DNA from: Escherichia coli
GTDB taxonomy: Bacteria > Pseudomonadota > Gammaproteobacteria > Enterobacterales > Enterobacteriaceae
Assembly (NCBI RefSeq): GCF_003334765.1
Contig: NZ_QOWT01000001.1
Strand: one strand, 5' to 3'
DNA: 64,000 nucleotides
Below are positions 1 through 51,928 of the stretch, one piece after another (within the stretch, counting starts at the first letter, position 1; each line of letters opens with the position of its first letter). A program made the position numbers and the translations under genes. The notes below the pieces were generated by a model. It worked only from the letters and a program-made list of their open reading frames with translations, made no database searches and was not told the DNA's origin.

Positions 1-1267
1 TGGTCAGTTTTTTCAGTGTGGCGTTAATACTGTCCTGTGCGCTATCAATAATGCCATCATCGGCAAGGTAACCTTTTACCTCGGTGGTAATTTTGGTGGT
101 AATTCCTGTTTCTTTACCATCGCCTACCAGCAATTCACGTACGGATGCTGTATTTTCATTCAGGACTTTTTTGAGTTTATCATCATCAATTTTCAGCTTA
201 CCCGTCGTGCCGTCCTGCTTAATCCCGATCTCGTTTAATGTTTTGAAGGCACCGTCGCTGGCACCGTTTGCAAATTGTGCGCGGATGCCGCTTTGAATTG
301 TACGTACAACGCTGTCTCCGAGAAGTGCACCATTATTTTTATCTTGTGCTTCAGCACCTGGGTCTACTTCTTTATATTTTGTCAGGGTGTTAAAGGTGTC
401 AATGAGGGAGTTATATGAATCCACCCAGCCTTTAATTGCTTCGGTTGCTTTATCGTTGCTTTTTGTCACCGTGACCCGGACGTCAGTGACTTTTTTGGTC
501 AAATCGAGAGTCACTCCCTGAGGAGCATCGGTAATTTTGTTACTTGAACGTTCAATATCGATACCGTTAACGTTTAGCTGTGCATTTTGCGCGTTAACCA
601 GTTCCTTCATATTCCCGGTGTTGGTCTTGCTGTCATAAGCCAGCAGATCATTTAATTTACTGTCACCCTCAACAGATATGGTCATTTTATTGGCCAGACC
701 TTCACTGGCGGTCAATACCAATTGATAGTCACCATCTTTGACTTTAACGATACTAGCGGAAATTCCACTATCGGCATCGTTAATGGCTTTGCTGATCTCA
801 CCCAATGACGTCTGATCTTTATTGAGCTTGATTTCCAGCGGCTCTTTACGGCCGTCTTGGGTAATTTTTATTGTGCGTGTATCTGATGACTCATCACCCA
901 GTGCATCTTTTGTTGATGCAATGATTGTCGGGGAATCAGTTCGTAAAGATTGCGCCTGCGCCAGTTGGGTTACGCTGATGGTATAGATACCGGGGGCAGC
1001 ACCTGCTTCGGTGGAAACTTTAAGGTCTTCATTGCTACTGGTAACGGTAGTGCTTTTGAACAGATCGGCTTTATTTAACGCAGTATTTGCAGTCTGGAAT
1101 TTTTCTAATGCACTTTTTAATGTGCCATAGGCTGTCAGACGTGCGGTATTGTCACTCTGTTGCTGAGTAATTGGGTTTAAGCGTTTTTTTTCAGCGATGG
1201 TCAGGTTGTTTAGCAATGTATCCAGCGGCAGATTCGAACCAACGCCAAGAGATGTAAATGAAGCCAT
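1..1267 (-). CDS. fliD: Flagellar filament capping protein FliD (HAP2), N-terminal ~420 codons; 3' end lies beyond window start
   Basis: Minus-strand reading frame from ATG at ~1265-1267 translates MASFTSLGVGSNLPLD...TAYGTLKSALEKFQTANTALNKADLF, FliD-like; divergent from fliC as in E. coli. Confidence 0.85.
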   Translation of the reverse strand, partial: MASFTSLGVGSNLPLDTLLNNLTIAEKKRLNPITQQQSDNTARLTAYGTLKSALEKFQTANTALNKADLFKSTTVTSSNEDLKVSTEAGAAPGIYTISVTQLAQAQSLRTDSPTIIASTKDALGDESSDTRTIKITQDGRKEPLEIKLNKDQTSLGEISKAINDADSGISASIVKVKDGDYQLVLTASEGLANKMTISVEGDSKLNDLLAYDSKTNTGNMKELVNAQNAQLNVNGIDIERSSNKITDAPQGVTLDLTKKVTDVRVTVTKSNDKATEAIKGWVDSYNSLIDTFNTLTKYKEVDPGAEAQDKNNGALLGDSVVRTIQSGIRAQFANGASDGAFKTLNEIGIKQDGTTGKLKIDDDKLKKVLNENTASVRELLVGDGKETGITTKITTEVKGYLADDGIIDSAQDSINATLKKLT

Positions 1268-1305
1268 ACCTAATTCCTTTTGATTGCAAACAGTAGATAA
1301 GCGGG

Positions 1306-1332
1306 TTATCGGCAATTTGTGCGCAAAGTTTA
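1306..1332 (-). promoter_or_regulatory. sigma-28 (FliA) class 3 promoter for fliD
   Basis: Minus strand reads TAAACTTT-N11-GCCGATAA, the sigma-28 consensus. Confidence 0.6.
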
Positions 1333-1425
1333 ATAGTTGATTCACGAAGATGATGCGCAGAGTAGAGTTGTATATTACGGATATTTCAGCCGTTAAGAAA
1401 AAACAGGAGAGAAACTAAAATTTTC

Positions 1426-1452
1426 TAAAGTTCGAAATTCAGGTGCCGATAC
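1426..1452 (+). promoter_or_regulatory. sigma-28 (FliA) class 3 promoter for fliC
   Basis: TAAAGTTC-N11-GCCGATAC about 70 nt upstream of fliC ATG. Confidence 0.65.
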
Positions 1453-1521
1453 AAGGGGTACGGTGAGAAACCGTGGGCAACAGCCCAATAACATCAAGTT
1501 GTAATTGATAAGGAAAAGATC

Positions 1522-3015
1522 ATGGCACAAGTCATTAATACAAACAGCCTGTCGCTGTTGACCCAGAATAACCTGAATAAATCTCAGTCTTCTCTGAGCT
1601 CCGCCATTGAACGTCTCTCTTCTAGCCTGCGTATTAACAGTGCTAAAGATGACGCAGCAGGTCAGGCGATTGCTAACCGTTTTACGGCAAATATTAAAGG
1701 TCTGACTCAGGCTTCCCGTAACGCGAATGATGGTATTTCTGTTGCGCAGACCACTGAAGGTGCGCTGAATGAAATTAACAACAACCTGCAGCGTATTCGT
1801 GAACTTTCTGTTCAGGCAACTAACGGTACTAACTCTGACAGTGACCTGACCTCCATCCAGTCCGAAATCCAGCAACGTCTGAGTGAAATTGACCGTGTTT
1901 CTGGTCAGACTCAGTTTAACGGCGTTAAAGTGCTGGCTTCTGATCAGGATATGACTATTCAGGTTGGTGCAAACGACGGCGAAACAATTACTATTAAACT
2001 GCAGGAAATTAATTCCGACACACTGGGATTATCTGGTTTTGGTATTAAAGATCCTACTAAATTAAAAGCCGCAACAGCTGAAACAACCTATTTTGGATCG
2101 ACAGTTAAGCTTGCTGACGCTAATACACTTGATGCAGATATTACAGCTACAGTTAAAGGCACTACGACTCCGGGCAAACGTGACGGTAATATTATGTCTG
2201 ATGCTAACGGTAAGTTGTACGTTAAAGTTGCCGGTTCAGATAAATCCCCTGAAAATGGTTATTATGAAGTTACTGTGGAGGATGATCCGACATCTCCTGA
2301 TGCAGGTAAGCTGAAGCTGGGGGCTCTAGCGGGTACCCAGCCTCAAGCAGGTAATTTAAAGGAAGTCACAACGGTGAAAGGGAAGGGGGCTATTGATGTT
2401 CAGTTGGGTACTGATACCGCAACCGCTTCTATCACAGGTGCAAAACTCTTTAAGTTAGAAGACGCTAATGGCAAAGATACTGGTTCATTTGCGTTGATTG
2501 GTGATGACGGTAAACAGTATGCAGCGAATGTTGATCAGAAAACAGGTGCAGTTTCCGTTAAAACAATGTCTTACACTGATGCTGACGGTGTCAAACACGA
2601 CAATGTTAAAGTTGAACTGGGTGGAAGCGATGGCAAAACCGAAGTTGTAACTGCAACCGATGGCAAAACTTACAGTGTTAGTGATTTACAAGGTAAGAGC
2701 CTGAAAACTGATTCTATTGCAGCAATTTCTACGCAGAAAACAGAAGATCCTTTGGCTGCTATCGATAAAGCACTGTCTCAGGTTGACTCGTTGCGTTCTA
2801 ACCTAGGTGCAATTCAAAACCGTTTCGACTCTGCCATCACCAACCTTGGCAACACCGTAAACAACCTGTCTTCTGCCCGTAGCCGTATCGAAGATGCTGA
2901 CTACGCGACCGAAGTGTCTAACATGTCTCGTGCGCAGATCCTGCAACAAGCAGGTACTTCTGTTCTGGCACAGGCTAACCAGACCACGCAGAACGTACTG
3001 TCTCTGCTGCGTTAA
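1522..3015 (+). CDS. fliC: Flagellin (H antigen); conserved N/C termini with a central region unlike K-12 H48
   Basis: 497 aa ORF; N-term MAQVINTNSLSLLTQNNLNK... and C-term ...SRIEDADYATEVSNMSRAQILQQAGTSVLAQANQ are flagellin D0/D1; RBS AGGAAAAGA upstream. Confidence 0.95.
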   Translation: MAQVINTNSLSLLTQNNLNKSQSSLSSAIERLSSSLRINSAKDDAAGQAIANRFTANIKGLTQASRNANDGISVAQTTEGALNEINNNLQRIRELSVQATNGTNSDSDLTSIQSEIQQRLSEIDRVSGQTQFNGVKVLASDQDMTIQVGANDGETITIKLQEINSDTLGLSGFGIKDPTKLKAATAETTYFGSTVKLADANTLDADITATVKGTTTPGKRDGNIMSDANGKLYVKVAGSDKSPENGYYEVTVEDDPTSPDAGKLKLGALAGTQPQAGNLKEVTTVKGKGAIDVQLGTDTATASITGAKLFKLEDANGKDTGSFALIGDDGKQYAANVDQKTGAVSVKTMSYTDADGVKHDNVKVELGGSDGKTEVVTATDGKTYSVSDLQGKSLKTDSIAAISTQKTEDPLAAIDKALSQVDSLRSNLGAIQNRFDSAITNLGNTVNNLSSARSRIEDADYATEVSNMSRAQILQQAGTSVLAQANQTTQNVLSLLR

Positions 3016-3059
3016 TCGCCGCTATATTCTGCCAAACCCCGCTCCGGCGGGGTTTTTTC
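2860..3059 (+). ncRNA. fliX: Possible FliX-type 3'UTR-derived sRNA from the fliC mRNA end (approximate bounds)
   Basis: Established knowledge that a sigma-28-dependent sRNA derives from the fliC 3' end; here only the terminator is visible in sequence. Confidence 0.25.
3035..3059 (+). terminator. Rho-independent terminator of fliC
   Basis: GC hairpin CCCCGCTCCGGCGGGG followed by T-run. Confidence 0.75.
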
Positions 3060-3119
3060 TACCCGGCAAATAGCCGTAACCCCCAAATAACCCCTCATTT
3101 CACCCACTAATCGTCCGAT

Positions 3120-3160
3120 TAAAAACCCTGCAGAAACGGATAATCATGCCGATAACTCAT
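3120..3160 (+). promoter_or_regulatory. fliA promoter region with GCCGATAA -10-like element
   Basis: GCCGATAA at ~3148-3155 just upstream of fliA GTG; the -35 is poor, so the exact promoter is uncertain. Confidence 0.3.
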
Positions 3161-27054: not shown

Positions 27055-27938
27055 GTGCTTATCTTATTAGGTTACCTGGTTGTTCTCGGTACAGTTTTCG
27101 GCGGTTATTTGATGACCGGTGGAAGCCTTGGAGCACTCTATCAACCCGCTGAACTGGTGATTATTGCCGGTGCAGGGATTGGGTCGTTTATCGTCGGCAA
27201 TAATGGCAAAGCGATTAAAGGCACGCTGAAAGCGCTGCCGTTGCTGTTTCGTCGCTCCAAATACACCAAAGCAATGTATATGGATCTGCTGGCTCTGCTT
27301 TATCGGTTGATGGCGAAATCGCGGCAGATGGGGATGTTTTCGCTGGAACGTGATATTGAAAATCCCCGTGAGAGCGAGATCTTCGCCAGCTACCCACGCA
27401 TCCTCGCGGATAGCGTCATGCTTGATTTTATCGTCGATTATCTGCGCCTGATTATCAGCGGTCACATGAACACCTTCGAAATCGAAGCCCTGATGGATGA
27501 AGAGATTGAGACGCACGAAAGCGAGGCAGAAGTCCCGGCGAACAGTCTGGCGCTGGTCGGGGACTCACTTCCGGCGTTTGGTATTGTCGCGGCTGTAATG
27601 GGGGTCGTTCACGCGTTAGGTTCAGCCGATCGTCCTGCCGCCGAGCTGGGGGCGCTTATCGCACATGCGATGGTGGGGACTTTCCTCGGTATTTTATTGG
27701 CTTACGGATTTATTTCCCCACTAGCGAGTGTTTTACGTCAGAAAAGCGCCGAAACCAGCAAAATGATGCAGTGCGTCAAAGTCACTCTGCTTTCTAATCT
27801 GAACGGTTACGCACCGCCTATCGCCGTTGAGTTTGGTCGCAAAACGCTCTATTCCAGCGAACGTCCGTCGTTTATTGAACTGGAAGAGCATGTGCGTGCG
27901 GTGAAAAATCCGCAACAACAGACGACAACCGAGGAAGC

Positions 27939-27942
<4 letters not shown>
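27055..27942 (+). CDS. motA: Flagellar motor stator protein MotA
   Basis: 295 aa, GTG start; 4 TM helices. Confidence 0.95.
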
Positions 27943-30834
<2,892 letters not shown>

Positions 30835-31358: not shown

Positions 31359-31384
31359 TTCTCCCGATTTCCTCAATTGAAATG

Positions 31385-31414
31385 AACCCGATGATCTGCG
31401 CATCGGGTTTTTTA
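31385..31414 (+). terminator. Rho-independent terminator after cheW
   Basis: AACCCGATG-ATCTGCG-CATCGGGTT followed by TTTTT. Confidence 0.75.
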
Positions 31415-31444
31415 TTTCAATTTCGCGGCGGGTGGCATCAGCAA

Positions 31445-31471
31445 TAAAGTTTCCCCCCTCCTTGCCGATAA
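31445..31471 (+). promoter_or_regulatory. sigma-28 promoter of the tar-tap-cheRBYZ operon
   Basis: TAAAGTTT-N11-GCCGATAA, a perfect consensus. Confidence 0.75.
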
Positions 31472-39151: not shown

Positions 39152-41222
39152 TCTGGCCGCGATGCTGCGCCTGCCCGCAAACCTGAAATCGACACAATGG
39201 CAGATCCTTGCCGGACCGATTTTGATCCTGTTGATCTTGTCGATGATGGTGCTGCCACTGCCCGCATTCATACTCGACCTGTTGTTTACCTTCAATATTG
39301 CCTTGTCGATCATGGTGTTGCTGGTGGCGATGTTTACCCAGCGCACGCTTGAGTTTGCTGCGTTTCCGACCATTCTGTTGTTTACCACGCTGTTGCGTCT
39401 GGCACTTAACGTGGCTTCAACCCGTATCATTTTAATGGAAGGGCATACCGGCGCGGCGGCGGCAGGGAAGGTGGTCGAAGCGTTCGGTCACTTCCTCGTT
39501 GGTGGCAATTTCGCTATCGGTATCGTGGTGTTTGTCATTCTCGTGATCATCAACTTTATGGTCATTACCAAAGGTGCCGGGCGTATCGCAGAAGTGGGTG
39601 CGCGCTTTGTTCTCGATGGTATGCCGGGTAAGCAGATGGCGATTGACGCCGACCTTAACGCCGGATTGATTGGTGAAGATGAGGCGAAAAAACGCCGCTC
39701 CGAAGTGACTCAGGAAGCCGATTTTTACGGCTCAATGGACGGGGCAAGTAAGTTTGTTCGCGGCGATGCCATCGCCGGGATCCTCATCATGGTCATTAAC
39801 ATTGTCGGCGGGTTGCTGGTCGGCGTGCTGCAACATGGCATGAGCATGGGACACGCGGCGGAAAGTTATACGCTATTGACCATTGGCGACGGTCTGGTGG
39901 CACAAATTCCGGCGCTGGTGATTTCTACCGCCGCGGGGGTCATCGTTACGCGTGTCAGCACCGATCAGGATGTTGGCGAGCAGATGGTGAATCAGCTTTT
40001 CAGTAACCCAAGCGTTATGTTGTTAAGCGCCGCCGTGCTCGGTTTACTCGGCCTGGTGCCTGGAATGCCGAACCTGGTATTTTTGCTGTTCACTGCCGGA
40101 TTGCTCGGGCTGGCCTGGTGGATACGCGGACGCGAACAAAAAGCGCCTGCCGAACCCAAACCGGTAAAAATGGCAGAGAATAATACCGTTGTCGAAGCGA
40201 CGTGGAACGATGTACAACTGGAAGATTCTCTGGGAATGGAAGTGGGTTATCGACTGATCCCGATGGTCGATTTCCAGCAGGATGGTGAGTTGTTGGGCCG
40301 TATACGCAGTATCCGCAAGAAATTTGCCCAGGAGATGGGATTTCTGCCGCCAGTGGTGCACATTCGCGACAATATGGATCTGCAACCTGCCCGCTATCGC
40401 ATTTTGATGAAAGGCGTGGAGATTGGCAGTGGTGATGCTTATCCGGGGCGCTGGCTGGCGATTAACCCTGGAACCGCTGCTGGGACGTTACCTGGTGAGG
40501 CGACCGTCGATCCGGCATTTGGCCTGAATGCTATCTGGATTGAAAGTGCGCTAAAAGAACAGGCGCAGATTCAGGGGTACACAGTGGTTGAGGCCAGCAC
40601 GGTGGTAGCAACGCATCTTAACCACCTCATTAGCCAGCATGCCGCAGAGCTGTTTGGTCGTCAGGAGGCGCAACAGCTGTTGGATCGCGTCGCCCAGGAG
40701 ATGCCAAAGCTGACGGAAGATCTCGTTCCTGGCGTCGTCACGCTCACCACACTGCATAAAGTGCTGCAAAATCTCCTCGATGAAAAAGTACCGATTCGCG
40801 ATATGCGCACCATTCTCGAAACGCTGGCGGAACATGCGCCCATCCAAAGCGATCCACATGAATTAACCGCCGTCGTGCGCGTGGCGTTGGGACGGGCGAT
40901 TACCCAGCAGTGGTTTCCTAGCAAAGATGAAGTCCATGTTATTGGCCTCGATACACCGCTGGAACGTTTGTTACTACAGGCGCTGCAGGGCGGGGGAGGA
41001 CTGGAGCCAGGGCTGGCGGATCGTTTACTGGCGCAAACTCAGGAAGCGCTATCCCGTCAGGAGATGCTGGGTGCGCCGCCAGTATTGTTGGTGAACCACG
41101 CGCTGCGACCATTATTGTCTCGCTTCCTGCGCCGCAGCTTGCCGCAGTTAGTGGTCCTGTCGAATCTGGAACTGTCTGATAACCGACATATCCGCATGAC
41201 GGCGACAATTGGCGGCAAATAA
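39144..41222 (+). CDS. flhA: Flagellar export gate protein FlhA
   Basis: 692 aa from MSNLAAMLRLPANLKSTQWQILAGPILIL; overlaps flhB end by 8 nt. Confidence 0.95.
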   Translation: MSNLAAMLRLPANLKSTQWQILAGPILILLILSMMVLPLPAFILDLLFTFNIALSIMVLLVAMFTQRTLEFAAFPTILLFTTLLRLALNVASTRIILMEGHTGAAAAGKVVEAFGHFLVGGNFAIGIVVFVILVIINFMVITKGAGRIAEVGARFVLDGMPGKQMAIDADLNAGLIGEDEAKKRRSEVTQEADFYGSMDGASKFVRGDAIAGILIMVINIVGGLLVGVLQHGMSMGHAAESYTLLTIGDGLVAQIPALVISTAAGVIVTRVSTDQDVGEQMVNQLFSNPSVMLLSAAVLGLLGLVPGMPNLVFLLFTAGLLGLAWWIRGREQKAPAEPKPVKMAENNTVVEATWNDVQLEDSLGMEVGYRLIPMVDFQQDGELLGRIRSIRKKFAQEMGFLPPVVHIRDNMDLQPARYRILMKGVEIGSGDAYPGRWLAINPGTAAGTLPGEATVDPAFGLNAIWIESALKEQAQIQGYTVVEASTVVATHLNHLISQHAAELFGRQEAQQLLDRVAQEMPKLTEDLVPGVVTLTTLHKVLQNLLDEKVPIRDMRTILETLAEHAPIQSDPHELTAVVRVALGRAITQQWFPSKDEVHVIGLDTPLERLLLQALQGGGGLEPGLADRLLAQTQEALSRQEMLGAPPVLLVNHALRPLLSRFLRRSLPQLVVLSNLELSDNRHIRMTATIGGK

Positions 41223-44918: not shown

Positions 44919-45754
<836 letters not shown>

Positions 45755-46061
45755 TCCCTGAACAGTATAAAAAACGAACGATAACCGTGATCTGTTGAGC
45801 GGGTGACAGTGCGCATAGCGTTGTGCTAAAAATATTGTATATATTCACATTAATTATGGGATTTAAATTACTAAAACTGATAAATATATATTCTAAATAG
45901 CAACTGGGTTATTCCTTAGCAATTAATGATTACATTGTAATAAATCATATTCTTTATCGATTGTTTCAGGCAGTGTTGTGCCTAATTATGCAAGCGGTTA
46001 ATTCGTTGTATATTTAATTATACAATGATTTCGGTGTCCAGTAATTTAATTAGAGGAATCT

Positions 46062-47162
46062 ATGCGAGGGAAAAAACGCATTGGGTTATTGTTTTTGCTG
46101 ATAGCGGTTGTGGTTGGTGGCGGCGGGTTATTGCTGGCGCAAAAAGCCTTACATAAAACGTCGGATACAGCATTTTGCCTTTCCTGCCACTCGATGAGTA
46201 AACCTTTTGAGGAATATCAGGGAACTGTCCACTTTTCGAACCAGAAAGGGATACGTGCGGAATGTGCCGATTGCCATATTCCAAAGTCAGGGATGGATTA
46301 TTTATTTGCTAAATTAAAGGCATCTAAAGATATTTATCATGAATTTGTTAGCGGCAAAATAGACAGTGACGATAAGTTCGAAGCTCATCGCCAGGAAATG
46401 GCCGAAACAGTATGGAAAGAATTAAAAGCCACTGACTCTGCAACGTGCCGTAGTTGCCATTCTTTTGATGCCATGGATATTGCCTCGCAAAGTGAATCTG
46501 CGCAGAAAATGCATAACAAAGCACAAAAGGACAGCGAAACCTGTATCGATTGTCATAAAGGCATTGCCCATTTTCCGCCAGAAATAAAAATGGATGACAA
46601 CGCGGCGCATGAGCTGGAAAGTCAGGCCGCTACTTCAGTTACTAATGGCGCACATATTTATCCTTTCAAAACTTCTCACATAGGCGAGCTGGCTACCGTG
46701 AATCCTGGAACCGATCTCACCGTCGTTGATGCCAGTGGCAAACAGCCGATCGTTCTGTTGCAGGGTTATCAAATGCAGGGCAGTGAAAACACGCTCTACC
46801 TGGCGGCAGGTCAACGGCTGGCGCTAGCCACATTAAGTGAAGAAGGTATCAAGGCGCTCACTGTAAACGGGGAATGGCAGGCTGACGAATACGGCAATCA
46901 ATGGCGTCAGGCGTCTTTACAGGGTGCGCTTACCGATCCCGCATTAGCGGACCGTAAACCGCTATGGCAATACGCTGAAAAACTTGACGATACCTATTGC
47001 GCTGGTTGTCATGCCCCTATTGCCGCCGACCATTACACCGTCAATGCGTGGCCGTCCATTGCCAAAGGAATGGGGGCACGAACCAGCATGAGCGAAAACG
47101 AACTGGACATTTTAACGCGGTATTTCCAGTACAACGCCAAAGATATTACCGAGAAACAGTGA
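46062..47162 (+). CDS. torY: Membrane-anchored pentahaem c-type cytochrome TorY
   Basis: 366 aa; CxxCH haem motifs (CLSCH, CADCH, CRSCH, CIDCH, CAGCH). Confidence 0.93.
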
Positions 47163-47186
47163 TCCTCGTTGATCAGGGAGGAAGTT

Positions 47187-49616
47187 ATGACATTAACAAG
47201 ACGTGAATTTATTAAACACAGCGGTATTGCCGCTGGAGCGCTGGTGGTGACATCGGCAGCACCGCTCCCCGCATGGGCAGAAGAGAAGGGCGGTAAAATC
47301 CTCACCGCGGGACGTTGGGGAGCGATGAACGTAGAAGTGAAGGACGGCAAGATTGTTTCTTCAACAGGCGCGCTGGCGAAAACCATACCGAATTCCTTAC
47401 AGTCTACGGCGGCGGATCAGGTACACACCACGGCGCGTATTCAGCATCCGATGGTGAGAAAAAGCTATCTCGATAATCCACTGCAACCGGCGAAAGGTCG
47501 TGGCGAAGATACCTATGTACAGGTGAGCTGGGAACAGGCGTTAAAACTGATTCATGAGCAACATGATCGTATTCGTAAAGCTAACGGACCATCGGCCATT
47601 TTTGCCGGATCTTACGGCTGGCGCTCTTCTGGCGTGTTGCATAAAGCGCAAACCTTACTGCAACGTTATATGAACCTGGCGGGCGGTTATTCCGGGCATA
47701 GCGGCGATTATTCAACCGGGGCAGCACAGGTGATCATGCCGCATGTGGTCGGTTCTGTAGAGGTGTATGAACAGCAGACCTCCTGGCCGCTGATTCTGGA
47801 AAACAGCCAGGTTGTGGTGCTGTGGGGAATGAACCCGCTGAATACCTTAAAAATTGCCTGGAGCAGTACCGATGAGCAAGGGCTGGAATACTTCCATCAG
47901 CTGAAAAAATCTGGCAAACCAGTGATTGCCATTGATCCTATCCGCTCCGAAACCATCGAATTCTTTGACGATAATGCCACCTAGATCGCGCCGAATATGG
48001 GCACCGACGTGGCACTGATGTTAGGGATTGCGCATACCCTGATGACACAAGGCAAACACGATAAAGTGTTCCTTGAAAAATACACTACCGGGTATCCGCA
48101 GTTTGAAGAGTATCTGACAGGTAAGAGCGATAATACGCCGAAGAGCGCGGTCTGGGCGGCGGAAATTACTGGCGTACCGGAAGCGCAGATAGTCAAACTC
48201 GCTGAACTGATGGCGGCGAATCGCACAATGCTGATGGCAGGCTGGGGAATTCAGCGCCAGCAATATGGTGAACAGAAACACTGGATGCTGGTGACGCTGG
48301 CGGCGATGTTAGGGCAGATTGGTACACCGGGCGGCGGTTTTGGTTTCTCTTATCATTACTCCAACGGTGGCAACCCGACGCGTGTTGGCGGCGTGCTGCC
48401 GGAAATGTCTGCGGCGATTGCCGGACATGCCAGCGAGGCCGCTGATGATGGCGGAATGACGGCGATTCCTGTTGCCCGTATCGTCGATGCGCTGGAAAAT
48501 CCTGGCGGCAAATATCAGCATAACGGTAAAGAACAAACGTATCCGAATATCAAAATGATCTGGTGGGCGGGTGGCGGTAACTTTACCCATCACCAGGATA
48601 CTAATCGTCTGATTAAAGCATGGCAGAAACCGGAGATGATCGTCGTTTCTGAATGCTACTGGACCGCAGCAGCCAAACACGCAGATATCGTATTACCGAT
48701 CACCACATCGTTTGAGCGCAATGACTTGACGATGACCGGTGATTACAGCAACCAGCATATTGTGCCGATGAAGCAGGCTGTTGCTCCGCAATTTGAAGCG
48801 CGTAACGATTTTGACGTGTTTGCCGATCTTGCGGAATTACTCAAACCTGGCGGAAAAGAGATCTATACCGAAGGTAAAGATGAAATGGCGTGGCTGAAAT
48901 TTTTCTATGATGCCGCTCAGAAAGGTGCCCGTGCGCAACGCGTCACTATGCCAATGTTTAATGCCTTCTGGCAGCAAAATAAACTGATCGAAATGCGCCG
49001 CAGCGAGAAGAACGAACAGTACGTTCGTTATGGTGATTTCCGCGCCGATCCGGTGAAAAATGCGCTGGGTACGCCAAGCGGCAAAATTGAAATCTATTCA
49101 AAAACGTTGGAAAAATTTGGCTATAAGGATTGCCCGGCACACCCAACCTGGCTGGCTCCTGATGAATGGAAAGGTACCGCCGACGAGAAGCAGTTACAGC
49201 TTCTGACCGCACATCCGGCACACCGTTTACACAGTCAGCTTAACTATGCGGAACTGCGTAAAAAATATGCGATCGCCGATCGTGAACCAATCACTATTCA
49301 CACCGAAGATGCTGCACGCTTTGGTATTGCGAATGGCGATCTGGTGCGTGTCTGGAACAAACGTGGTCAGATTTTGACAGGCGCGGTGGTGACTGACGGG
49401 ATCAAAAAAGGCGTGGTATGCGTGCATGAAGGTGCATGGCCAGATCTGGAAAATGGCTTGTGTAAAAACGGCAGTGCGAACGTGTTAACGGCGGATATCC
49501 CCAGCTCGCAGCTGGCAAATGCCTGTGCCGGTAACTCAGCGTTGGTGTATATCGAAAAATATACGGGCAATGCACCGAAGTTAACGGCGTTTGATCAGCC
49601 AGCTGTTCAGGCGTAA
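47187..49616 (+). pseudogene. torZ: TMAO/biotin sulfoxide reductase TorZ (BisZ) interrupted by an in-frame TAG at 47982-47984
   Basis: ORFs 47169-47984 and 47997-49616 are in the same frame and together equal the 809-aa TorZ length from [17 protein letters not shown] (Tat signal); a single stop codon separates them. Confidence 0.75.
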
Positions 49617-49667
49617 GACGTGAATAGCGCCCGGAAACGGGCGCTGAGGTTATGCAAACGTAAAGCT

Positions 49668-49766
49668 GCCTGATGCGCTATGCTTATCAGGCCTACATAG
49701 TCCCTGCAATATATTGAATTAGCAAGGTTTTGTAGGCCGGATAAGGCGTTCACGCCGCATCCGGCA
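49668..49766. repeat. BIME/RIP-type element: two REP palindromes flanking an AT-rich core
   Basis: GCCTGATGCGCTATGCTTATCAGGCCTAC ... GTAGGCCGGATAAGGCGTTCACGCCGCATCCGGCA. Confidence 0.6.
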
Positions 49767-49780
49767 GTAATACCAGACCT

Positions 49781-51928
<2,148 letters not shown>

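Follow-up and report, generated by a model that had tools for sequence, protein, structure and literature searches.

Structure of the torYZ locus

The torYZ operon lies on the forward strand of the 64,000-nucleotide stretch of Escherichia coli DNA analysed here (the window), where an intact torY is followed by a torZ gene whose frame is interrupted once, by an amber codon at the position of tryptophan 266 (W266*). The features of the locus are listed below.

46062–47162, + strand: torY, first gene of the torYZ operon, coding for an intact 366-aa pentahaem cytochrome c of the NapC/NirT type (from the ORF list)
47176–47184, + strand: torZ Shine-Dalgarno sequence GGGAGGAAG, anti-SD duplex of -11.1 kcal/mol
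47187–49616, + strand: torZ (bisZ) pseudogene, 809 codons and a terminal TAA in a single frame with one interruption
47187–47279, + strand: Tat (twin-arginine) signal peptide region ending in ...PAWA, read from the sequence
47187–47984, + strand: remnant N-terminal frame, 265 codons and TAG, product P0031
47980–47984, no strand assigned: former Dcm site, CCTAG here and CCTGG in every intact allele
47982–47984, + strand: premature amber stop W266*, TGG to TAG, from alignment and genome counts
47985–49616, + strand: untranslated remainder of torZ, codons 267–809, which encloses the mechanical ORF 47997–49616

The two genes are 24 nt apart. The first mechanical ORF, 47169–47984, opens at a TTG, and the biological ATG, with the MTLTRREF start, is at 47187. 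Read from there to 49616, torZ comprises 810 codons including the terminal TAA and hence 809 residues, the same as K-12 TorZ. An initial annotation made from the sequence alone had placed the ORFs 47169–47984 and 47997–49616 in one frame, counted the 809 codons of TorZ from MTLTRREF, named the TAG at 47982–47984 as the lone interruption and described torY as unbroken; the frame check, the length of the span, the lack of a second in-frame stop and the complete torY ORF bore out these points. Cleavage of the signal peptide is predicted after AWA, from the motif and from what is known of TorZ. The torY accession WP_001214290.1 appears in the annotations of carriers and non-carriers of the stop alike, and the sole torY difference from the window in our SNP table is a K-12-specific change at 46147. 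No polar effect downstream is expected, as the operon ends with torZ, opposite the convergently oriented cmoB. A scan of the locus for promoters and terminators gave no signal exceeding shuffled sequences.

Alignment of torZ with that of K-12 MG1655 revealed three differences in 2,430 nt. The difference at 47540 is synonymous, that at 47983 (A in the window, G in MG1655) converts TGG into TAG and that at 49000 gives R605 in the window, as in most E. coli, against the K-12-specific H605. The two ORFs are therefore the halves of a gene that shares 99.9% identity with one already characterised, and their arrangement is not due to chance. Codon 266 was TGG in all the intact alleles examined, namely those of MG1655, KE58, 98-3133 and NCTC9104 and five more from other haplotypes, which settles the ancestral codon, expected beforehand to be TGG or CAG, as TGG. 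No frameshift or stop other than W266* was found in the seven carrier sequences compared.

Distribution and origin of the premature stop

Among 5,426 complete genomes of E. coli, an exact search with an 81-mer spanning W266* retrieved 45, which come from unrelated laboratories and varied hosts and countries, and a 30-mer containing the TAG retrieved the identical set, so that the stop is missing from 99.2% of these genomes. The exact 265-aa product was present in at least 1,000 public contigs (one of them of 5.4 Mb), as was the exact 539-aa product of the downstream ORF. The stop is also carried by AF58, a genome near-identical to that of the window, and in all eight carriers inspected the NCBI PGAP annotation treats torZ as a pseudogene with an "internal stop", the call having an identical location in AF58, EH09-18-41, NCTC9041, RM10410, Y5, A14 and ES7. 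Independent assemblies thus agree on an in-frame stop that comes early by comparison with intact orthologues. The pseudogene is already flagged in public annotation; a search of the literature for torZ pseudogenes in E. coli returned no relevant report.

One option left by the initial annotation was a sequencing or assembly error, with TGG as the true codon and an intact gene. Single-base differences are the commonest type of error and one window sequence was supplied, but the same base recurs in 45 complete genomes sequenced independently on various platforms, in the public contigs and in AF58, and together with the PGAP calls these observations refute an error, the chance of which we regard as negligible. 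The other option, a strain-specific loss of TorYZ, stood as regards the loss but not as regards the strain, for the proposed check of other isolates was positive across a whole lineage. W266* is an ordinary lineage-level pseudogene of a minority group of K-12-like strains, and we hold with high confidence that it constitutes a real, lineage-shared torZ null allele.

A SNP table of six carriers and four non-carriers contained a single site in 41 kb that separated the two groups, namely 47983. A TAG-bearing version of the B1/E-type torZ haplotype had no match, with approximately 3,900 genomes at one mismatch, and that of the B2-type haplotype likewise had no exact match, with 1,139 genomes at one mismatch. 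Overall, all 45 occurrences lie on one haplotype and none was found among some 4,300 genomes that share the CCTGG but have a different haplotype. This confinement favours a single origin. The carriers nevertheless show at least three distinct haplotypes 17–24 kb upstream, two of which are common to non-carriers too, and a strictly clonal history is thereby excluded. From these patterns of sequence variation, we consider it very probable that W266* originated once in phylogroup A and that its flanks then recombined. The local haplotype varies hardly at all, so that on local sequence a few independent origins inside phylogroup A retain a small probability. A single G:C to A:T transition, from TGG (Trp266) to TAG, created the null allele, in all likelihood on the common, K-12-like torZ haplotype of phylogroup A, and inheritance or homologous recombination would since have spread it through diverse strains of this phylogroup hosted by humans, poultry, pigs and wildlife.

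The position of the mutation suggests a chemical cause. CCTGG became CCTAG by mutation of the G at 47983, whose partner in the bottom-strand CCAGG is the internal C, the base that Dcm would methylate; the dcm gene lies outside the window. A change from an ancestral CCWGG in which this cytosine becomes T has the form of a Dcm deamination. As the mutation coincides with the 5-methylcytosine of a Dcm site, deamination of this base that escaped very-short-patch repair would be the likeliest chemical cause (for Dcm/VSP chemistry see PMC2715241), although we hold the chances of this origin to be about evenly balanced.

A hotspot at this site could also have produced W266* several times independently. 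This reading accommodates the three upstream haplotypes and the fact that only six of the 298 possible nonsense substitutions in torZ are Dcm-type targets, W266* being one of them; moreover, among the nonsense alleles examined, the two with the highest counts, W266* and W200*, both lie at Dcm sites. It is opposed by the restriction of the stop to one haplotype, with no independent recurrence on B1-, B2- or E-type haplotypes, and by flank differences that start at distances above 17 kb and resemble ordinary recombination imports. Enrichment of Dcm-type alleles was analysed by searching public contigs for exact copies of the truncated products expected from each allele. At first sight, nine of ten such products exist. 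In the control with the essential gene argS, four of five truncated products were also matched, in 8–14 short contigs labelled 'partial', so low counts are contig-end artefacts with a background of about 10 contigs. Only W266*, W200*, Q231*, Q196* and Q181* were clearly above this background, and no clear excess of Dcm over non-Dcm nonsense alleles was left after the control (robust alleles at 2/4 Dcm targets and 3/7 non-Dcm targets). Repeated independent origins are thus unlikely, and a single origin in phylogroup A is preferred. The protein P0033 (207 aa, 102 contigs) resembled the product of Q208*, at another Dcm site, but proved to be a C-terminal fragment starting from M603.

Predicted consequences for the enzyme

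Homology and Pfam analyses were conducted with K-12 TorZ, which differs from the conceptual product of the window at residues 266 and 605 only. Across residues 3–806 this protein matched 7l5i (E = 5e-301), 1eu1, 4dmr and 1tmo, that is, full-length homology to solved reductases of the Tor/Dor/MtsZ (DMSO/TMAO/MetSO) family, and the Pfam domains were found in the order of that family: Molybdopterin_N at 40–80, Molybdopterin at 84–550 and Molydop_binding at 670–779 (K-12 numbering). The Tat signal and the operon with the pentahaem TorY are both present. No uninterrupted frame, however, covers all the cofactor-binding domains. The 265-aa product keeps the Tat signal and extends through Molybdopterin_N and roughly 39% of the way into the Molybdopterin domain; the rest of PF00384 (to residue 550) and all of Molydop_binding (670–779) are lost. 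A break after some 265 residues, ahead of most of the cofactor-binding parts, had been anticipated in the initial annotation, and alignment and Pfam layout agree with it. Lacking the rest of the MGD-holding domain and the whole C-terminal dinucleotide-binding domain, the product should, judging from this domain layout, be incapable of acting as a reductase.

The possibility that torZ is nonetheless functional, at a reduced or conditional level, through a suppressor tRNA or near-cognate decoding of UAG had also been raised. The frame is otherwise intact, with no second lesion in the seven carriers, a 100-nt segment centred on the stop region has a somewhat more stable fold than its shuffled versions (z = -2.26) and the A that follows the stop does not make the strongest termination context. 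Against this, the stop is not conserved among orthologues and occurs in 0.8% of genomes, so nothing has evolved around the TAG; local sequence and fold are identical in the wild type, and the fold, being that of ordinary coding sequence, was dropped as a candidate recoding element. A preserved frame is expected for a young pseudogene at about 0.1% within-group divergence. The three tRNA genes of the window all have normal anticodons, and a query for a supE-type tRNA-Gln(CUA) had exact matches in 155 genomes, of which the 60 listed were all K-12 laboratory derivatives. E. coli is not known to have a pyrrolysine system or to use UAG as a selenocysteine codon. With the stop absent from more than 99% of genomes, expression under amber suppression found no support in the window's tRNA genes or the listed matches and appears highly improbable, although traces of full-length TorZ (about 86 kDa when mature) may arise through low-level natural readthrough of UAG. 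Nor do the two fragments, of 265 and 539 residues, look like a split gene whose products assemble into a two-piece enzyme. There is an in-frame ATG 13 nt past the stop, at 47997, and many deposited annotations call both ORFs as genes. This ATG has no ribosome-binding site, however (anti-SD duplex of +0.4 kcal/mol against -11.1 at the true start), and the downstream part has no independent translation start; the C-fragment would be without the Tat signal and without five residues (WIAPN), the break falls mid-way through one Pfam domain and PGAP handles the locus as a single pseudogene. We give a two-piece enzyme virtually no credence. The preferred reading is an inactive remnant.

Dispensability of TorZ and comparison with known alleles

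W266* most likely switches off a minor, redundant respiratory enzyme. The passage of PMC5122715 that summarises Gon et al. 2000 states that a strain with torYZ only needs overexpression of the operon to respire TMAO, and that a physiological role for TorYZ in E. coli has yet to be established. E. coli has seven related reductases with overlapping induction (PMC12096835). For torZ itself, copper, HOCl and paraquat stress are reported inducing conditions. With TorYZ expressed at a low level and backed by other S- and N-oxide reductases, its loss probably costs little, and this would be why W266* persists. That loss is tolerated also follows from the existence of other torZ null alleles: W200* and Q231* in complete genomes, a differently placed stop in JCC-EE 7, and assorted frameshifts and Q288* among public proteins. 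The loss might alternatively be favoured in some host-associated E. coli, with W266* spread by recombination as an advantageous allele. The gain could then be, for example, saved molybdenum cofactor and Tat capacity or the avoidance of a harmful reaction, and the many independent torZ nulls would be convergent adaptive losses. We consider such an advantage improbable and retain the view of a low-cost loss.

The importance of the allele is small, in that it confirms that TorYZ is dispensable in nature. Strains with W266*, W200* or Q231*, including ETEC H10407, are natural knock-outs for tests of TorZ function, and W266* is a tidy natural amber allele at a Dcm site. As a lesson of method, when large collections of assemblies are searched for exact copies of truncated proteins, the background from contig ends has to be controlled for.

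Among known systems, the closest is TorZ of K-12 (BisZ, P46923/WP_000176781.1), a molybdoenzyme and the catalytic subunit of the S-/N-oxide reductase TorYZ. It shares with the window the cutC-torY-torZ locus with convergent cmoB and, beyond the DNA identity given above, the start, length, Tat signal and domain order are all the same. It differs in having TGG rather than TAG at codon 266, where the window product ends at residue 265. The intact allele WP_000176782.1, found in KE58, O157:H16 98-3133 and NCTC9104, equals the conceptual translation of the window torZ, and its sole difference from the haplotype shared by the carriers is at 47983 (G against A); the window, AF58 and ES7 additionally have a later synonymous change at 47540. 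On the basis of these comparisons, WP_000176782.1 is assigned as the direct ancestral type of W266*, with which it shares its phylogroup A haplotype. Other torZ nulls known from E. coli and Shigella (W200*, Q231*, Q288*, frameshifts and a 1-nt deletion in codon 265) are independent and likewise retain torY; they lie at other positions and on other haplotypes, and each is rarer in complete genomes, with 10 for W200* and six for Q231*, H10407 among them, against 45 for W266*.

Lastly, the lacI amber hotspots at Dcm sites, reportedly traced to 5-methylcytosine deamination by Coulondre et al. in 1978, resemble W266* in that the inner cytosine of CCWGG changes to T, which reads as G to A in the coding strand and makes TAG. 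W266* differs from them as an allele of natural populations, at a site where recurrence was looked for and none was found.

Interruption of torZ and its effect on the protein

Positions 45800-49800 of the window were read directly and the open reading frames (ORFs) listed. The locus has the E. coli order cutC-torY-torZ, with cmoB-cmoA convergent, and torZ, which encodes the catalytic molybdoenzyme of the minor TorYZ S-/N-oxide reductase, is interrupted:

46062-47162: torY, 366 aa, intact (ORF listing)
47169-47984: ORF, 5' part of torZ, mechanical start TTG (ORF listing)
47187: ATG, biological start of torZ, preceded by GGGAGGAAG (sequence reading)
47997-49616: ORF, 3' part of torZ, sharing the frame of 47169-47984 (ORF listing)

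The initial annotation, in which torZ was split into two same-frame ORFs by a single TAG at 47982-47984, proved correct in every particular. This TAG is the sole interruption of the frame from 47187 to 49616, which holds the 809 sense positions expected for TorZ followed by a terminal TAA, and torY was indeed left intact. The MicL sRNA is matched over its full length (382 bits) at 45446-45753 (+), within the 3' end of cutC and directly upstream of torY, an arrangement already known for E. coli. A match to the ES036/CssrF sRNA family at 49689-49731 (-), scoring 45.5 bits (gathering score 37.6), falls among the REP-like repeats that separate torZ from cmoB and may only reflect REP sequence.

Alignment with torZ of K-12 MG1655 revealed three differing positions in 2,430 nt: 47540, which is synonymous (A118); 47983, where the window has A (TAG) and MG1655 has G (TGG), giving W266*; and 49000 (R605 in the window, H605 in MG1655). 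The ancestral codon is thus TGG, one of the two (TGG or CAG) that had been anticipated. TorZ H605 and TorY V29 (49000 and 46147) were found only in MG1655 among 11 sequences compared, the others having R605 and A29. Conceptual translation of the window torZ with Trp restored gives the intact WP_000176782.1 of strains KE58, O157:H16 98-3133 and NCTC9104. Trp266 is kept in H. influenzae MtsZ, whereas DMSO reductases of Rhodobacter have Val or His there, a pattern that is immaterial, the change being nonsense.

Intact TorZ aligns end to end with solved MtsZ, DMSO reductases and TorA, and contains the domains Molybdopterin_N (residues 40-80), Molybdopterin (84-550) and Molydop_binding (670-779). 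The stop falls inside the Molybdopterin domain and ahead of Molydop_binding, in agreement with the predicted truncation before most of the molybdopterin-binding domains. The 544 residues lost would include everything required to enclose the bis-MGD cofactor, and an active enzyme is not expected. As torZ is the last gene of its operon, no downstream gene is affected. No second frameshift or stop was present in the seven carrier torZ sequences, which would fit a young pseudogene at a group divergence of about 0.1%.

Distribution and origin of the stop

The survey of other isolates proposed in the initial annotation was carried out with an 81-mer centred on the stop, which had perfect matches in 45 of the 5,426 complete E. 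coli genomes; a 30-mer search returned exactly the same genomes. The carriers were isolated from humans, chickens and pigs, from one crow and one opossum, and from sediment of a bullfrog farm, in countries including the UK, Laos, China, USA, Mexico, Brazil and Japan; one of them, NCTC9041, is a culture-collection strain of long standing. Exact matches to the 265-aa product and to the 539-aa product were each found on at least 1,000 contigs (the longest of 5.4 Mb). Of the carriers whose annotation was inspected, all eight have torZ labelled by the NCBI pipeline as a pseudogene ("internal stop").

A sequencing error, with a sense codon and an intact torZ behind it, had been offered as one explanation and is excluded by the presence of the same stop in so many complete genomes from varied hosts and countries, as well as on the contigs. 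Expression of torZ by amber suppression or readthrough, also offered, retains a small residual probability, and nothing spoke positively for it: the allele with the stop is in the minority (0.8%), the tRNA genes within the window are normal, supE-type tRNAs were, among the matches listed, all in K-12 laboratory derivatives, and a mild RNA structure near the stop (z = -2.26) is shared by the wild type. A two-piece enzyme made of the 265-aa fragment and a restarted C-terminal fragment is very unlikely. There is an in-frame ATG 13 nt 3' of the stop, but it has no ribosome-binding site (+0.4 against -11.1 kcal/mol at the true start) and its product would be without a Tat signal. The remaining option, a strain-specific loss of TorYZ, stands as to loss of function; the loss is lineage-level rather than strain-specific, being shared by the 45 genomes.

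Over 41 kb (23100-64000), the window was compared with six carriers and four close non-carriers, and 47983 was the sole site separating carriers from non-carriers. The phylogroup A genomes compared are almost identical throughout ~31-64 kb. The block at 23100-30700 (otsBA-uspC-flhDC-motAB-cheA) is a mosaic in which phylogroup A genomes differ by about 60-100 SNPs. Its haplotype boundaries are sharp, as if segments around flhDC had been imported by recombination, and each of its three distinct haplotypes includes carriers:

Haplotypes at 23.1-30.7 kb
Haplotype 1: window, AF58, A14 and NCTC9041
Haplotype 2: carrier RM10410, matching non-carrier O157:H16 98-3133
Haplotype 3: carrier Y5, matching non-carriers KE58, NCTC9104 and MG1655

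Published metadata are also diverse, RM10410 being an O113:H4 STEC of phylogroup A (PMC10562709) and EH09-18-41 belonging to ST3944 (PMC8350485), and the history of W266* was therefore not strictly clonal. Local torZ haplotypes of other phylogroups were determined and then searched for TAG. A 30-mer common to the A-, B1- and E-type haplotypes gave 45 exact matches, again the same genomes, with 3,900 genomes one mismatch away, while TAG on the B2 haplotype gave no exact 30-mer match among complete E. coli genomes, with 1,139 at one mismatch. All 45 occurrences lie on a K-12-like torZ haplotype, found with TGG in about 960 genomes (estimated roughly from a listing sampled at even intervals), and no TAG was found among ~4,300 genomes with other torZ haplotypes. 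That TAG arose a few times independently within phylogroup A is improbable, as a site mutating often enough for three hits there would be expected to show some among the ~4,300 others. We therefore favour a single origin, which these sequence comparisons suggest was followed by recombination of the flanks or by transfer of the allele through homologous recombination.

Several further differences were observed among the carriers. AF58, a UK blood culture isolate, is nearly identical to the window, with a single gap over 23 kb and two SNPs over 41 kb; one of the two SNPs, 31413 (T in the window, C in AF58), lies within a C0465 RNA match at 31378-31455 (-), between cheW and tar. At 40920 (flhA codon 593) both have AGC (Ser) and 9/9 other genomes compared have GGC (Gly), a private, non-synonymous change, and 40481 is a synonymous SNP in the window alone. 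In ES7 (NZ_CM184333.1, 5842-7735 and 21829-22576), IS1 joins ftnB straight to a 5'-truncated cheA, with consequent loss of araFGH, otsBA, uspC, flhDC and motAB; this strain should therefore be non-motile, and its cutC is frameshifted. Y5 has a 12-bp in-frame flhC deletion relative to window 26401-26412, annotated as a shorter FlhC (WP_069905052.1).

The Dcm site at codon 266

The ancestral GCC ACC TGG ATC includes CCTGG, a site for Dcm. This enzyme methylates the internal C of each strand, and the base opposite the G at 47983 is the methylated C in bottom-strand CCAGG. Deamination of this 5-methylcytosine would give a T:G mismatch, a substrate of Vsr very-short-patch repair (PMC2715241), which if left unrepaired would yield top-strand CCTAG, exactly the change seen. 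Of 298 nonsense substitutions possible in torZ, 84 are G:C to A:T (in 63 codons) and only six, W266* among them, fall at Dcm-methylated positions; for a single event this coincidence (2% against all substitutions, 7% among transitions) is suggestive.

Truncated products predicted for stops at the other Dcm targets and at a matched set of non-Dcm ones were looked up exactly in a public protein collection, where nine of the 10 torZ products exist. For the essential gene argS, used as a control, four of five predicted products were also found, on 8-14 short contigs with the source label "partial". Contig ends thus create a background for which such look-ups need to be controlled. Five torZ alleles, all on Mb-size contigs, were the only ones clearly over it:

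Truncated torZ products above background
W266*: at least 1,000 contigs, Dcm site
W200*: 659 contigs, Dcm site
Q231*: 308 contigs, no Dcm site
Q196*: 122 contigs, no Dcm site
Q181*: 62 contigs, no Dcm site

No Dcm enrichment among torZ nonsense alleles was demonstrable (2/4 Dcm against 3/7 non-Dcm targets after the argS control), and hotspot behaviour was not borne out. Dcm deamination may reasonably be inferred as the cause of this one W266* event.

Other torZ lesions and the redundancy of TorYZ

Natural TorZ knock-outs are common, and other torZ lesions have arisen independently of W266*. W200* (TAG) was found in 10 complete genomes and Q231* (CAA to TAA, corresponding to 47877) in six complete-genome records, including ETEC H10407 (NC_017633.1, 2056422-2056451) and SEC470, which matches H10407 in length and hit coordinates. 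The torZ of JCC-EE 7 has an internal stop at another position, and Q288* and several frameshifts occur among public proteins. One of these (P0035; 276 aa, 127 contigs) carries a 1-nt deletion in codon 265 (ACC, ~47979), just four bases 5' of the W266* position and on a Gly261 haplotype unlike that of W266*. In 118 genomes, less than 80% of torZ aligned in one piece.

Public annotation already covers torZ and what it does, and lists this allele as a pseudogene; a literature search found no paper on the W266* pseudogene. There is nothing mechanistically new in the allele; what is added here is how it is distributed in the population, that it sits at a Dcm site, and that natural TorZ knock-outs are common. 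According to passages of PMC5122715 citing Gon et al. 2000, TorZ reduces S- and N-oxides alike, and a strain left with torYZ alone needs overexpression of the operon in order to grow by respiring TMAO; TorZ is there assigned no known physiological role in E. coli. E. coli has seven Mo-containing S-/N-oxide reductases that show low basal expression and overlap in their induction by stress, and their redundancy has been argued (PMC12096835). Poor expression and redundancy of this kind, together with the tolerance of other torZ lesions, would explain why the allele persists. W266* is an unremarkable loss-of-function allele, lineage-level in extent, of a gene that is minor and redundant.
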